This document shows positions 1-4,837 of a stretch of DNA of 64,000 bases, piece by piece. The notes beneath the pieces were generated by a model that had not been told where the DNA came from, did not search any database, and was given only the letters and a program-made list of their open reading frames with translations. Within the stretch, counting starts at the first letter, position 1. The number at the start of each line of letters is the position of its first letter. This stretch comes from an uncultured Acidobacteriota bacterium. Its GTDB lineage: Bacteria; Acidobacteriota; Thermoanaerobaculia; Gp7-AA8. The stretch spans positions 608,001 to 672,000 of the forward strand of contig CAWGHO010000001.1 of the NCBI GenBank assembly GCA_963822445.1, written 5' to 3'. The position numbers were made by a program, and so were the translations under genes.

Positions 1-1127
1 TCTGCATCGAGATCGAGCCGCTGTTCCGCATCGGCGAGCGCAATCTGTGGGAGTCGTTCGACATCCTCCGCCGCGAGTTCGTCCGCGGCCTGCACGTGAT
101 GATCGGCCCGATCCTCGGCAACGACGTGATCATCGCCACCAGCCATTCCGGCGCGAATGATTTCTACTGCTTCGTCCGCGAGCAGCGCTTCGCGAATCTC
201 ACCCAGATCTCCCGGGACCTCGAGCGCGTGGCCCGAAGCTCACTGAAAGCATTGCCAGTGGATTCGTCGCTCGCCGAGGAAGTGGTGGTGTTTGCAGGGG
301 CTTCGGTTACGCAGCGACAGCCGATCTTCGCGCCGCGCATCCTCTACAACGCCGTTCGCGAGGCGAAGGACACCGCCGAACGCCGCGAGACGCGCTACTA
401 CGCCGCGATGCGCGAGCGTCTGGTTCGTGTGATTCAGGAGAAAGCGATCACCACGCTCTTTCAGCCCGTAGTGAATCTCGAGACCCGCGCGATCGTCGGA
501 TATGAGGCTCTCTCCCGCGGACCCGCCGGAACGGAGCTGGAGAATCCGGAAGTGCTGTTCGAGCTGGCCCGCGACTTCGATCTGGTGTGGGAGCTGGAAG
601 CGCTGTGCATCCAGAACGTGCTGCCCTGGCTGGACGACGTCTGCTCGCGCGGCTTCCTCTTCTTCAATCTCGAGTCCCAGTTCATTCAACAGCTCCAGCA
701 GCGCGGCACGGACGTCTTCGATCCGTTCTTCCGCTGCAACCGGCAGATCGTGATCGAGGTGACGGAGCGCAGCGCGATCCGCGACTACCGGACATTCCGC
801 CACACGCTGCACAACCTCAAGACGATGGGATTCAGGATCGCCATCGACGACTGCGGCTCGGGATACGCAACGCTGGAAGCAGTGGCCGAGCTGCGGCCCG
901 ATTACCTGAAGGTGGGCCACTCGCTGTTTCACGGCGTCGAAAACGATCCGATCCGCCGGCGGCTAGTGGAGCTGGTCGCACGCTGCGCGGATACGATCGG
1001 CGCGCGCACGATCGCCGAGGCGATCGAGAGCGAGGAGCAACTCCGCGTCTGCCGCGAGCTGGGGATCACCGAGGGGCAGGGGTTCCTGCTCGCGCGGCCC
1101 GCGCCGTGGGGCGAGCTGGTGGCGTAG
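1..1127 (+). CDS. EAL-domain c-di-GMP phosphodiesterase with degenerate GGDEF-like region (5' truncated by window)
   Basis: Frame open from position 3; FQPVVNL, YEALSRG, IEVTER, IAIDDCGSG, LKVGHS, IAEAIE, QGFLL motifs; SGANDF in place of GGDEF. Confidence 0.9.
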   Translation, partial: CIEIEPLFRIGERNLWESFDILRREFVRGLHVMIGPILGNDVIIATSHSGANDFYCFVREQRFANLTQISRDLERVARSSLKALPVDSSLAEEVVVFAGASVTQRQPIFAPRILYNAVREAKDTAERRETRYYAAMRERLVRVIQEKAITTLFQPVVNLETRAIVGYEALSRGPAGTELENPEVLFELARDFDLVWELEALCIQNVLPWLDDVCSRGFLFFNLESQFIQQLQQRGTDVFDPFFRCNRQIVIEVTERSAIRDYRTFRHTLHNLKTMGFRIAIDDCGSGYATLEAVAELRPDYLKVGHSLFHGVENDPIRRRLVELVARCADTIGARTIAEAIESEEQLRVCRELGITEGQGFLLARPAPWGELVA

Positions 1128-1128
1128 G

Positions 1129-1263
1129 CACGAGCAACCGGGAGGCCTCCGGCGGGGCGGCCACGGGCCGCAGCGCTGGTTGTGCCTTCTGCCGTACTCG
1201 CGGTAGCTGGCGCGGATCGCGTTCACGCCAACATTAGCGCTGCCGGCCCGTGGCCGGCCCGCC
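1129..1263. repeat. Long palindromic (REP/MITE-like) element, left part; IS110 target
   Basis: Arm 1129-1177 is the reverse complement of 1236-1263 joined to 2805-2826 (49 bp, 3 mismatches, 1 bulge). Confidence 0.85.
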
Positions 1264-1269
1264 TATAGC
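1264..1269 (+). promoter_or_regulatory. -10 half (TATAGC) of the IS110 circle-junction promoter
   Basis: Falls exactly 17 bp after TTGACA (2782-2787) when the ends are joined through CC. Confidence 0.8.
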
Positions 1270-1369
1270 TTGTCCGGCCGTCTCTCCGCTTCTCCCTCAG
1301 CCCTCAGAGAAGTACCCGTTGGGTGGCAATCGGGAGAATCGGGTTCAGGCGGCGCGATACTGAGAAGAA

Positions 1370-1521
1370 GGGTTCGTCCCGCTACGAATTCCGCCCGTGT
1401 TCGGATCGACGAATCCCTCCGGACTTTCGAGCGGGACGAAGTGCTTTGGCCCGAAACGCATTCTCAGATGCTGTCGGAGCACGACTCGACTATAGGCCTT
1501 GCGCGCGGCCAAAGCCAACCC
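1370..1521 (+). ncRNA. IS110 bridge RNA core: target-binding loop 1373-1440 and donor-binding loop 1443-1515 (transcript likely starts ~1276)
   Basis: Stems TTCGTCCCGCT/AGCGGGACGAA and GCTTTGGCC/GGCCAAAGC, outer GGGTT/AACCC; guides CCGCC, CCTCCGG, CTCAGATG and CTATAGG match target and donor. Confidence 0.85.
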
Positions 1522-1535
1522 GAAGGGAGGGTGTG

Positions 1536-2780
1536 ATGAGCGAGTTCGAGTTTGGGGCGTTGGTGGGACTGGATTGGGGTGACACATCGCACGAGGTGGC
1601 TCTTTGGGACGAGCAGCAGCAGACGTGCACGAACGAGCGCATCGAGCACACGCCTGCGGCTCTGCGCGCATGGATCGAAGCGCTGCAGGCGCGCTTCGGC
1701 GGGGCACCGATCGCCGTGGCCATCGAGCAGTCCCGCGGCGCGGTCTTCGACGCGCTCAGCGGCTATCCGTTCGTCACGTTGTATCCGATCAACCCACGCA
1801 GTGCAGCCCGGTATCGTGAGGCGTTTCATCCGAGCCTTTCGAAAGACGATCCGACCGACGCGGCGTCCTTGCTCGACCTGCTCCGTAAGCACCGCAACGA
1901 GCTGCGCCCGTTCATCGCCGACGACGCTTCTACGCGGCTGCTGCGGCTTCTGACCGAGGATCGGCGGGAGCTCGTCGATCAGAGGACGCAACACGTCCAA
2001 CGCATGACCGATCGGCTCAAGACGTACTACCCGCAGGCGCTCCGGTGGGCCGGCGCGTTGATTACGGCCCAGGCCTGTGACTTCCTCGAACGCTGGCCGA
2101 CGCTCGAGGCCATCCAAAGGGCTCGGCCGTCCGCGATACGGAGGTTCTATGCGGGTCATCATCACGCGGCCGCGTGGATCGACCAGAGGCTCGCCGAGAT
2201 CCGTTCAGAGGTCGCGTTCCACGACGACCAGGTCACCACTGACGCTGCCGTGCTGCTGATCGGAAGCGAGGTTGCGCAGATCCGGGCCCTCAACACGAGC
2301 ATCGCCACGTACGACCAGAAGATCTCGGCGGCGTTCGCCGCCCACCAGGACGCGTCGATCTTCGCGAGCTTCCCTGGCGCCGGCCAACAGCTCGCGCCGC
2401 GGCTCGCCGCCGCCTTCGGGACCGATCGCAAGCGCTTCGGCAGCGCCGTCAACGTCGCCACCCGAAGCGGCATCGCCCCGGTTCTCCGCCGGAGCGGCAA
2501 AACGGCGGTCGTGCACATGCGCTGGGCCTGTCCGAAGTTCCTGCGTCAGACGTTCCATGAGTACGCCCGCGTGTCGATCGGTCAGTCCGAATGGGCTCGA
2601 GCCTTCTACAAGCAGCAACGCGCGCGCGGACACAGCCACCACGAGGCTATCCGCACGCTCGCTTACCGCTGGATCCGCGTCCTTTACGCCTGCTGGAACA
2701 ATCGCACCGTCTACGACGAAGCTCTCTATCTGCGGCAGCTCGCCACCCGAGGCTCAACCCTCGCCACAGCTGCTCCCTGA
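1536..2780 (+). CDS. IS110-family recombinase/transposase (414 aa)
   Basis: VGLDWG, IEQS, KDDPTDA (DEDD RuvC-like); FPGAG, SGIAPVLRRSG (Tnp domain serine loop); SD GGGAGG 1525-1530. Confidence 0.95.
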   Translation: MSEFEFGALVGLDWGDTSHEVALWDEQQQTCTNERIEHTPAALRAWIEALQARFGGAPIAVAIEQSRGAVFDALSGYPFVTLYPINPRSAARYREAFHPSLSKDDPTDAASLLDLLRKHRNELRPFIADDASTRLLRLLTEDRRELVDQRTQHVQRMTDRLKTYYPQALRWAGALITAQACDFLERWPTLEAIQRARPSAIRRFYAGHHHAAAWIDQRLAEIRSEVAFHDDQVTTDAAVLLIGSEVAQIRALNTSIATYDQKISAAFAAHQDASIFASFPGAGQQLAPRLAAAFGTDRKRFGSAVNVATRSGIAPVLRRSGKTAVVHMRWACPKFLRQTFHEYARVSIGQSEWARAFYKQQRARGHSHHEAIRTLAYRWIRVLYACWNNRTVYDEALYLRQLATRGSTLATAAP

Positions 2781-2781
2781 C

Positions 2782-2787
2782 TTGACA
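2782..2787 (+). promoter_or_regulatory. -35 half (TTGACA) of the IS110 circle-junction promoter
   Basis: Consensus TTGACA just after the recombinase stop, 15 nt before the CC core. Confidence 0.85.
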
Positions 2788-2804
2788 GGAAGGCTCAGAT
2801 GTCC

Positions 2805-2826
2805 GGAGGCCTCCCGGTCGGTCGTG
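2805..2826. repeat. Right remnant of the palindrome split by IS110
   Basis: GGAGGCCTCCCGGTCGGTCGTG pairs with 1129-1150. Confidence 0.85.
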
Positions 2827-2851
2827 TCATCGCTACAATACGACCACACCG

Positions 2852-4837
2852 ATGACATCGACCGTCCGGAAGGCCCTCGTCCGCGCGGGCCAGATTGTGT
2901 TGACCTTCGCCGTCTTCGCGTTCTTCAACGCCATCGCCTTCCACTTCGAGATCGAAAACGGCGTCTCGATTCTTTTCCCCGCCACGGCCATCTCCATCAT
3001 CGCCTGCATGTGGCTCGGCGTCTGGGGAGCCATCGGCGTCATCCTCGGCACCATCGTCACGCCGTGGGGTGCGGTCACCGCGTCGCAGCTCGTGATCAGC
3101 GGCGTGTTGGCGGCGCTCGAAGGGCTCATCCCCTACTACGTCTTTCGATTCCGGCGCGATCTCACGGAAGACCTGCGGGACATGAAGTCGCTGGTCGCGT
3201 TCCTGCTGTTCGGAACGATCATCAACAGCGCCATCAGCGCCATCCTCGGCAATCTGCTCGTCATTCCTCATCCGCCCGGCGAGACGATCGTGTGGCGGCA
3301 GGTGTTCGTCTGGTGGATCGCCGACTTCACCGCGGCGCTGCTCATCGCCACGCCGATTCTCGCGTTCGGCGGGACGCTCTTCCGCCGCGTCCGAGACCAC
3401 GACGAGCGCCCGCGCACGATCGGCAACGCGCTGCAGATCGTCACGGTCATCATCCTTCTCGGATTCGCGGCGTCCTTCGCCATCCGTACCTATCTCCTGA
3501 ACCGTCTCGAACAGGAGCGTCTCGATCAGCAGCAGATGTGGATCGGCGCGCAGGAAACGCTGAACCGGATGCACAGCAACTTCTTGCGCGCGGCCTTCAT
3601 CGATCCCGACGATCCCGGCGCGGAGGCGAAGCTCGACGCCGCGCGGCGCACGAACGAGGAGTTCATCCGCTCGATTCAGGACGCGACCGCCGGCGCATCC
3701 GATGAGCTGAAGCGCGAGCTCCCGCTGGTCGGCGCGGCCACGGCGCGGTGGTTCGCGACGGCGAAGTTGCGAGCCGACGGCGGGGAGGCCCATCAGACCG
3801 GCCGGCGCATCCTCGGCATCCGCGGAATGATGGATCGCGCCAACGCCCGGGCCTGGGAGAAGTTCACGGTCACGCGGCAAAAGATCATGTTCGTCGCGGC
3901 CGTCGTCGACGCGATCGTCTTCTCGATCCTGCTCCTGGCCACGACCACGCTCCTGTACACGATCTCCCGGCCGTTCGCGCAGTTGCGGGCGGGAATCCGG
4001 TCGATTCGCGAGGGAGATCCCTTCGATGCCACGCGAGTCGACTCGCGCTACCTCGAATTCCGATCCATCGCCGCGACGCTGGAGGAAACGGCGGCCGAGT
4101 TACGCCGCCGCGAGGAAGAGTTGCGCTTGCAGACGGAGAAAGCCATCCGCGCCTCGCGTCACAAGAGCGAGTTCCTGGCGAAGATGTCCCACGAGCTCCG
4201 CACGCCCCTCAATTCGATCATCGGCTTTTCCGACCTCCTCGCCGAACAGGAGACGACCATCTCCACGGAGAAGCGCCTGGCCTTTCTCGACAACGTGGCC
4301 AACAGCGCCCGGCATCTGCTGAAGCTGATCAACGACCTGCTCGACATCGCCAAGGTCGAATCGGGAAAGATGAAGCTGCATCTCGAGAACGTCGACCTGC
4401 GCATGAGCATCGCCAGCACCGTGGCCTCGACGCAGCCGCTGTTCGAGCGCAAACGGCAGGAAGTGGAGATCCGCACGCCGGATACGCCGATGATCGCCCA
4501 CGCCGACGCGGGGCGGATCGAGCAGGTCCTGCTCAACCTCCTGTCGAACGCAAACAAGTTCACGCCCGAAGGGGAGAAGATCGTCGTCAGCGGCGGCGCG
4601 GAAGCGGCCATGTGGCGGATCGAAGTCGCCGACCGCGGCATCGGCATCAGTCGCGACGATCAGGACCGCATCTTCGACGAGTTCGAGCAGGTCCAGTCCT
4701 CCGCCACCCACTCCACCGGCACCGGCCTCGGCCTGGCCCTGGCCCGTCGATTCGTCGAAGCGCACGGGGGGACGATTCAGGTGGAGAGCGCCCTCGGCGC
4801 GGGGGCGAGGTTCAGCGTGCTTTTGCCTCGCGCCTGA
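2852..4837 (+). CDS. MASE1-domain sensor histidine kinase
   Basis: Multi-TM N-terminus (LFPATAI, WWIAD); H-box MSHELRTPLN; N-box NLLSNANKF; DRGIGI, GTGLGL. Confidence 0.92.
   Translation: MTSTVRKALVRAGQIVLTFAVFAFFNAIAFHFEIENGVSILFPATAISIIACMWLGVWGAIGVILGTIVTPWGAVTASQLVISGVLAALEGLIPYYVFRFRRDLTEDLRDMKSLVAFLLFGTIINSAISAILGNLLVIPHPPGETIVWRQVFVWWIADFTAALLIATPILAFGGTLFRRVRDHDERPRTIGNALQIVTVIILLGFAASFAIRTYLLNRLEQERLDQQQMWIGAQETLNRMHSNFLRAAFIDPDDPGAEAKLDAARRTNEEFIRSIQDATAGASDELKRELPLVGAATARWFATAKLRADGGEAHQTGRRILGIRGMMDRANARAWEKFTVTRQKIMFVAAVVDAIVFSILLLATTTLLYTISRPFAQLRAGIRSIREGDPFDATRVDSRYLEFRSIAATLEETAAELRRREEELRLQTEKAIRASRHKSEFLAKMSHELRTPLNSIIGFSDLLAEQETTISTEKRLAFLDNVANSARHLLKLINDLLDIAKVESGKMKLHLENVDLRMSIASTVASTQPLFERKRQEVEIRTPDTPMIAHADAGRIEQVLLNLLSNANKFTPEGEKIVVSGGAEAAMWRIEVADRGIGISRDDQDRIFDEFEQVQSSATHSTGTGLGLALARRFVEAHGGTIQVESALGAGARFSVLLPRA

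Follow-up and report, generated by a model that had tools for sequence, protein, structure and literature searches.

We describe an insertion sequence of the IS110 group in DNA of an uncultured Acidobacteriota bacterium (GTDB lineage Thermoanaerobaculia, Gp7-AA8; GenBank assembly GCA_963822445.1). The stretch analyzed, here called the window, covers 64,000 nucleotides (contig CAWGHO010000001.1, positions 608,001 to 672,000 of the forward strand), and all positions below are those of the window unless another source is named. With a probability of roughly 0.9, positions 1264-2802 are an intact, recently active element of the IS110-proper subgroup whose left end encodes a bridge RNA. The original prediction, made by a model from the letters alone, had proposed an IS110 recombinase with a two-loop bridge RNA carrying a left and a right target guide (LTG, RTG) followed by a left and a right donor guide (LDG, RDG). 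The strings and both stems that it named were recovered exactly where it had placed them, and the layout is borne out by the protein domains and by covariation of the stems and of the guides with their flanks.

The element, its copies and its target sites

The element spans 1,539 bp and consists of a non-coding left end of 272 nt (1264-1535, plus strand), which is the predicted bridge RNA gene, a single gene for a protein of 414 amino acids (1536-2780, plus strand) and a right end of 22 nt. It begins with TATAGC and ends with CAGATGT, and the dinucleotide CC lies directly outside each end (1262-1263 and 2803-2804). Searching the genome (6.0 Mb in three contigs) revealed 14 DNA matches, namely nine full-length copies, 96-100% identical, and five partial pieces. 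The full copies carry CC at both ends in 9/9 cases and have unrelated outer flanks, which confirms the predicted borders at 1264 and 2802. No duplication longer than CC was found at the borders of any of the nine, and terminal inverted repeats are absent.

All full copies sit in one arm of a palindromic repeat, and all nine follow the site pattern ..(C/G)C(G/C)GCCCG-CC-GGAGGC... With positions counted from the core, the left target (LT) half -8 to -1 is CCGGCCCG in the window copy (1254-1261, plus strand). Seven of the ten left ends in the genome follow CCGGCCCG-CC and three follow GCCGCCCG-CC, while each of the 12 right ends is followed by CC-GGAGGC. In the window the right target (RT) half (+1 to +5, GGAGG) and the remaining repeat arm occupy 2805-2817 on the plus strand. 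Forty empty sites with CC and GGAGG were counted, 32 of them with CCGGCCCG and eight with GCCGCCCG. The sequence CCCGCCGGAGGC occurs 42 times in the genome, and 28 of these occurrences form inverted pairs 108-119 nt apart that fold as hairpins of ~170 nt. The target of the element is therefore an arm of a palindromic repeat resembling repetitive extragenic palindromic (REP) sequences or miniature inverted-repeat transposable elements; in the window, the left arm at 1138-1170 forms the inverted counterpart of 1244-1263 plus 2805-2817. Targeting of REP-type palindromic repeats is known for IS110 elements (PMC11208160). The right half alone does not make a target, because a further family of palindromic repeats (GTGTAGTGTGGGCCTCCGGCCTACC...GGTAGGCCGGAGGCCCACACTACAC; 77 copies, for example at G000:C1:145548, 149692 and 343054) shares the CC-GGAGGCC half, carries a foreign left half (..AGG) and is occupied in none of its copies.

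The copies also bear on whether the element is a decodable but inactive relic, a set of old copies whose RNA no longer guides recombination. One copy with an internal inversion and in-frame stops, two partial copies, and the lack of direct evidence for circles, empty alleles or transcripts in data that consist of DNA metagenome contigs only would suit such a relic. It is nevertheless quite improbable, as three copies show no difference over 1,539 nt and a fourth hardly any, nine reading frames in the genome are intact, the guides are identical in all ten left ends and the catalytic residues are present. Recent activity is thus retained as the preferred reading. Neither a right end-CC-left end junction nor a tandem copy was found in the genome search.

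Among the irregular copies, the one at G000:C3:469301-470839 (loci L010, L012 and L014) carries an inverted internal segment of 161 bp (element positions 415-575, within the gene), and its reading frame holds three TGA stops. At G000:C1:940359-941429 (L011 and L013) two partial 3' copies (element positions 847-1539 and 1161-1539) meet in opposite orientations at 941051, the outer border of each being a right end followed by CC-GGAGGCC.

The recombinase

The 414-amino-acid product has a DEDD RuvC-like and a Tnp domain, which were matched by PF01548 (1.6e-28, profile positions 1-155 of 155) and PF02371 (1.3e-11, positions 2-87 of 87), respectively. The NCBIfam model NF033542, 'IS110 family RNA-guided transposase', scored 143.2 bits against a cut-off of 140. 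Similarity to IS621 is remote: in a phmmer search with the single protein only the Tnp domain was aligned (E = 3e-4), and a profile of five relatives aligned over both domains with ISCro4 (1.9e-13) and IS621 (1.9e-11). Residues D13, D105, D108, S320 and G321 align with D11, D102, D105, S241 and G242 of IS621, the catalytic residues being numbered as in PMC11208158. E64 was assigned to E60 of IS621 by a shared IE motif only, because HMMER showed that IS621 residue as an insertion. All six (D13, E64, D105, D108, S320 and G321) are invariant in an alignment of five relatives with 42-100% identity. Recombinases of the subgroup that contains IS110 are described as 395-455 amino acids long and those of the IS621 branch as 315-330 (PMC11187229), and the predicted length of 414 fits the long-recombinase IS110-proper subgroup.

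Homologues and structure of the bridge RNA

Matches at E <= 1e-30 were obtained in five of 41 related genomes (the source genome included), and a scan of one genome per species yielded 79 loci with 45-89% identity, mostly in Acidobacteriota assemblies, some of them Thermoanaerobaculia. From the resulting 80 sources (79 loci and the window), two cut by contig ends and three without anchor motifs were removed, which left 75 loci with 53 distinct RNAs. A left end was found in 68 and a right end in 65 of the 75 loci, and the 53 loci with both flanks complete gave 29 distinct guide pairs. In homologues, the left end was identified from the reverse complement of the RDG, and the right end from the LDG together with the core. 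This placement has independent support from two sources only, the borders of multi-copy elements in two genomes and the agreement of the target guides with the flanks so defined. One of the relatives, G003 (42% identity), has five copies whose borders show a CT core. The 53 RNAs were aligned with MAFFT, a consensus was derived with RNAalifold and the pairs of the structure were counted.

The predicted RNA consists of a variable 5' stem-loop domain and two internal loops, each with an outer stem and an inner hairpin. The 5' domain (1277-1353, plus strand) is weakly conserved and was drawn from the consensus fold of six close relatives; from the first base of the element to the start of the target loop, homologues measure 76-267 nt. 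In the target-binding loop (1373-1440, plus strand) the outer stem is formed by 1373-1383, the exact complement of 1430-1440, and is followed by CGAA (1385-1388) opposite TTCG (1426-1429) and an inner hairpin at 1399-1414. The donor-binding loop (1443-1515, plus strand) has an outer stem of 1443-1451, exactly complementary to 1507-1515, then CGC (1457-1459) opposite GCG (1501-1503) and an inner hairpin (1473-1476/1482-1485).

In the RNAalifold consensus of the 53 distinct RNAs, 23 of 27 pairs are compensatory, with double changes. When the inner hairpin of the donor loop was added, giving a fuller structure, double changes were counted in 26/32 pairs (14/17 in helices 1-2 and 12/15 in helices 3-5). 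In this fuller structure 89.7% of the cells are paired, compared with 69.8% in shuffles (0/500 as high), and pairing falls to 30-48% (maximum 48.1%) when the partners are slid by one to three columns as a control.

These compensatory changes speak to another reading of the left end, as a mere 5' untranslated leader or an N-terminal coding extension of a protein that chooses the site itself, so that the guide matches would be incidental. An open frame of 485 amino acids does run from GTG 1323 in frame into the gene. Neither a coding extension nor recognition by protein alone would, however, be expected to produce compensatory stem changes or covariation of guides and flanks; in two copies that are 1 nt short of 1,539 the open frame is cut to 427 amino acids while the protein is still 99% identical; the region 5' of the loops varies between 76 and 267 nt in homologues; and a strong ribosome-binding site (GGGAGGG, 1525-1531, plus strand) ends 4 nt 5' of ATG 1536. 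The probability of this reading is negligible, and the left end is treated below as a bridge RNA.

Two irregularities were seen at the ends of homologous elements. Among the five copies in the relative with 42% identity, one (L019, G003:C1) carries a tandem duplication of the first 13 nt of the left border region (TTATAGGTGCTCC). At L018 (G018:C184) a right end with its flank, ~50 nt including TTGACA...CTCAGATAG-CT-GAGGCGCG, stands twice in tandem at the contig end, 3' of the gene.

Target guides

To the covariation of the stems is added that of the guides with the DNA they are predicted to read. For the 29 guide pairs, compared with their own flanks at the non-core positions LT -8 to -1 and RT +1 to +5, 281 of 377 identities were counted. 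Permuted flanks gave a mean of 128 (standard deviation 11), and none of 10,000 permutations reached 281. A register scan peaked sharply at shift 0 (0.64, compared with 0.28-0.41). The RTG matches both core positions and +1 to +5 in 23-29 of 29 pairs; beyond that, at +6 and +7, agreement drops to background (5 and 6 of 29). For the LTG, between 20 and 26 of 29 pairs agree at each position from -6 to -1; at core position 1, 21 of 29 agree and six more form wobbles.

In the window the RTG is CCTCCGG (1416-1422, plus strand), the reverse complement of core CC plus RT GGAGG. The LTG is by homology TCCGCCCGT (1390-1398, plus strand), which would pair with LT -7 to -1 and form a wobble at core position 1: its segment CCGCCCG (1391-1397) equals LT -7 to -1 of the three GCCGCCCG sites (7/7 positions, 3/10 sites), and T1398 stands opposite core position 1 as a U-G wobble with the bottom strand. 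In close relatives (78-89% protein identity) it is mainly the LTG that varies, and the flanks follow, with the LTGs TTCGGCCGC, TTGGCCCGC and TCGGCCCGT standing beside the flanks cccggccg, ccggcccg and gcggcccg, respectively. The same is apparent in soil metagenome contigs of near relatives (one contig of run X4 at depth 26 and one of run X2 at depth 2), in which differences from the window sequence cluster in LTG positions 1390-1392 and 1398 and in the target loop's inner hairpin, the remainder of the RNA loops being conserved.

The original prediction had read the LTG differently, as a short guide CCGCC at 1391-1395 that is identical to the left target plus core and would thus pair with LT -3 to -1 and both core bases. 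The 5-nt string match is exact, and pairing of the LTG with both core bases is described for IS621 (PMC11208160). Tested on the same five guide positions in homologues, this register (shift +4) gave 54/150 identities, compared with 100/150 in the family register; 54/150 is background for sites as GC-rich as these. The scan peaks only at shift 0, the LTGs of L040 (CGGCCG), L041 (CGGCCCG) and L106 (ATTGCCCG) match their own flanks in the family register, and three of the ten sites of the source genome match at 7/7 positions. That the LTG works in the CCGCC register is therefore very improbable. Three of the four predicted guides (RTG 1416-1422, LDG 1463-1470 and RDG 1490-1496) are upheld far beyond chance in homologues, and the fourth had been misplaced by 4 nt; at 9 nt (1390-1398) the homologous LTG is not unusually short either.

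Core, donor guides and handshake

RTG and RDG specify one and the same core in 51 of 53 distinct RNAs (39 CT, nine CC and three GT), and where the ends of a locus were found, this dinucleotide also stands at its right border. In two loci, L061 and L066, the cores disagree, and the right end of L112 was placed 1 nt off; these were read as slips of alignment or placement and left uncorrected. Counted by RNA cluster, CC occurs in three separate clusters and GT in two. Since RTG, RDG and border dinucleotide agree, the predicted CC core is right and is read by both right guides.

The LDG of the window, CTCAGATG (1463-1470, plus strand), has the same sequence as left donor (LD) positions -9 to -2 and recurs at 2794-2801 within the left donor CTCAGATGT (2794-2802, plus strand), the final bases of the element. 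The RDG, CTATAGG (1490-1496, plus strand), is the reverse complement of core CC plus the right donor (RD) TATAG. Among homologues, the LDG matches LD -9 to -2 in 24-27 of 28 combinations, including 26/28 at each of the variable positions -3 and -2, and the RDG matches RD in 28/28. LD-1 is matched by the LDG in only 13/28, i.e. the LDG stops one base short throughout the family, just as the original prediction had noted for the window. T1472 stands opposite core position 1 as a wobble.

A bulged arrangement, in which LD-1 is skipped and C1471 pairs with core position 1, was considered and rejected, as it fits the five-copy relative G003 and not the family: the guide position after LD-2 tracks LD-1 in 13/28, and the next one tracks core position 1 in 12/28 with four wobbles.

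The base unread by the LDG has another partner. The nucleotide after the RTG (A1423 in the window, plus strand) is complementary to LD-1 in 39/41 combinations and to LT-1 in 1/41; conversely, the nucleotide after the RDG (C1497, plus strand) is complementary to LT-1 in 39/41 and to LD-1 in 0/41. In the window these partners are T2802 and G1261, respectively. A second handshake position was at background in both loops (13/41 and 16/41). Counted by RNA cluster, the handshake of the target loop occurs as A-T in 12, C-G in three and T-A in two clusters. As judged from this covariation, LD-1 is read by the nucleotide after the RTG instead of by the LDG.

A predicted promoter at the circle junction and the proposed life cycle

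When right end, core and left end of homologues were joined in silico, 39 of the 40 distinct junctions had TTGAC upstream of TATAGN at a spacing of 17 or 18 nt. In the window a -35 box TTGACA (2782-2787, plus strand) in the right end and the -10 box TATAGC, which includes the right donor TATAG (1264-1269, plus strand), would be separated by 17 nt, i.e. 15 nt of right end and the 2-nt core, so that a sigma-70 promoter is predicted to exist only after circularization. That the right donor doubles as a -10 box may explain the conservation of the donor in the clade. A promoter scan of the integrated copy returned no forward-strand site, but the scan demands T at the last -10 position, where TATAGC could not score. 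Its sole promoter-like match lies on the minus strand at 1489-1518 (TTGGCT-18-TATAGT), over the RDG, and is probably a by-product of a guide that mirrors a -10-like right donor.

By analogy with IS621, excision would bring right and left end together with a single CC between them and so build the sigma-70 promoter. A transcript starting at ~1277 would contain the 5' stem-loop domain, the target loop and the donor loop, followed by the recombinase mRNA. In the donor loop, the LDG (1463-1470) would pair with LD -9 to -2 and the RDG (1490-1496) with CC plus TATAG. The handshake bases A1423 and C1497 would pair with the other DNA only after top-strand exchange, because each matches the -1 base of the other DNA. 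The DEDD/Ser recombinase would swap strands at the CC core and place the element in one arm of the palindromic host repeat. Transcription, binding of the RNA by the protein, catalysis and programmability we infer from the likeness to characterized relatives.

Evidence weighing against the proposal

Several points weigh against an intact element with a functional bridge RNA. The pairing is imperfect by IS621 standards, since seven of the ten left ends in the genome (the CCGGCCCG sites) mismatch the LTG at -6, both left guides present U and not C opposite core position 1, and C1471 mismatches LD-1. The single-sequence fold of 1264-1540 is marginal (z = -2.0; 5/200 shuffles fold as well), so that the structural support rests on covariation, and an Rfam scan of 1000-3000 found no family, its two sub-threshold chance matches scoring 22.5 against 60.4 bits and 14.9 against 153. 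Of the checks proposed together with the original prediction, folding returned little, and covariation of the guides was found with target flanks, donor ends and core, the register it had given to the LTG excepted. The match of RDG and RD is partly circular, because left ends of homologues were found via the complement of the RDG, and raw counts overstate independence, because the lineages are related; the 53 RNAs fall into 23 clusters at 80% identity. All 22 sequencing runs examined were DNA metagenomes available as contigs, the best with 0.30 of the sampled words, and transcription, processing and circles are thus things we infer. Four of the runs, compared with 1100-2950, contained neither a circle junction nor an empty allele, which in contigs says nothing about absence.

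Comparison with known bridge recombinases

Every feature of IS110-group bridge recombinases that can be tested on sequence was found in the element. Compared with IS621 of E. coli, as described in PMC11208160 and PMC11208158, it shares a recombinase with DEDD and Tnp domains, a long left and a short right end, a promoter rebuilt across the circle junction, and an RNA composed of a 5' stem-loop, a target loop and a donor loop. It likewise has left guides in the sense of the top strand, right guides that are reverse complements including the core, handshake guides 3' of the right guides, and a repetitive and palindromic target.

The geometry differs from that description of IS621, as had been suspected from the window alone. 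The protein has 414 instead of 326 amino acids and is only remotely similar, the core is CC, the left guides reach core position 1 only and not both core bases, the RTG has 7 nt instead of 4, covariation of the handshake is seen at one position instead of two, and LD-1 is not read by the LDG. The handshake follows the logic described for IS621 and IS622, visible here at one position. T at core position 2 is reported to be 'almost invariant' in IS621 relatives, where it is read by a main-chain amide (PMC11208158); a natural C at this position is thus a real difference. The traits of the IS621-like branch (~315-330 amino acids, a CT core, a 9-nt LTG over both core bases and a 4-nt RTG) are not those of the element, and neither are those of the IS1111 group (a long right end, downstream of the gene, that holds the guide RNA, and subterminal inverted repeats of 7-17 bp), as the right end has 22 nt and the RNA lies upstream of the gene.

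Further likeness is to the IS110-proper subgroup and to ISEc21. As described for the seekRNA of ISEc21 (Siddiquee et al. 2024, PMC11187229), the non-coding region lies 5' of the gene, a promoter is formed on circularization, and two RNA segments match the target, one per strand. Unlike the present element, ISEc21 belongs to an intermediate cluster of 345-385 amino acids and has a linear target in IS3-family genes; this comparison was made by description only.

ISPpu10 of Pseudomonas putida (bioRxiv 10.64898/2026.03.19.712850) is reported to insert in REP-type palindromes with its left target in the stem of a DNA hairpin. The left target of the window recalls this, in that it would lie partly in a small predicted hairpin (GCCGGCC/GGCCGGC, 1242-1258, plus strand; -18 kcal/mol for 1237-1263 in ViennaRNA) whose 3' arm overlaps LT -8 to -4. 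The LTG of ISPpu10 is described as tolerant of mismatch and its RTG as rigid, and such tolerance fits the LTG mismatch at 7/10 sites as compared with RTG-matching right flanks at 12/12. In contrast to ISPpu10, which is reported without a 5' stem-loop and with a CT core, the element combines a CC core with a 5' stem-loop domain.

The element falls within a category that exists already. Its mechanism became known in 2024, and computational work has decoded RNAs of this sort by the tens of thousands. Durrant et al. (2024, PMC11208160) predicted bridge RNAs for 85.7% of the IS110-group entries of ISfinder, and 32,190 were decoded with 86 models in a later survey, some of them with guides longer than those of IS621 (bioRxiv 10.64898/2026.10.21.760802). 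As far as their published descriptions go, such surveys use the approach followed here, with covariance models of the RNA beside the recombinase gene, guides being assigned where they covary with reconstructed targets and donors. The view that this is a probably uncharacterized recombinase thus stands for the element itself; its kind has already been surveyed at scale, and a long recombinase is described as typical of IS110-proper. CC or GT cores and a one-base handshake are not described in the bridge-RNA sections of these surveys, although no literature search aimed at either was made.

What the element adds is a natural bridge recombinase outside the IS621 branch, with guides, handshake, promoter, core and dozens of empty sites that can be read from its DNA. 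It indicates that C at core position 2, which is almost never found in IS621 relatives, is used in nature, with both right guides tracking the core, and it explains why the palindromic repeats of a soil acidobacterium are peppered with one insertion sequence. For tool builders, it would be a candidate with a 7-nt RTG and a non-CT core. The CC core, left guides that appear to end at core position 1 and the one-base handshake are the details that seem worth the attention of specialists. It is conceivable, though we consider it doubtful, that the IS110-proper clade uses a geometry of strand exchange distinct from that of IS621, in which core base 2 is free to be C (CC in at least three RNA clusters, GT in two), left guides end at core position 1, often by a U-G wobble, the RTG has 7 nt and a single-base handshake alone reads donor position -1. 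If so, its enzymes would reach cores disfavored by tools of the IS621 type and would show which IS621 contacts are dispensable.

Plasmid relatives and neighboring genes

Relatives on plasmids amounted to 1,146 records, all with less than 60% identity and named only 'IS110 family transposase'. One of them, L114 on the E. coli plasmid NZ_CP069544.1 (positions 500-660 and 1930-1960), encodes a 43%-identical recombinase that is common on enterobacterial plasmids, and its upstream region has the same architecture of ACGAAT...TTCGAG and AACGAAT-ACTCAG...CTATA. Inspected by eye, the core positions of its RDG (CTATATT) mismatch the bases before TATAG at the left border. In the window, the element is flanked by a gene for an EAL-domain protein (96-1127) and a gene for a MASE1 histidine kinase (2852-4837).

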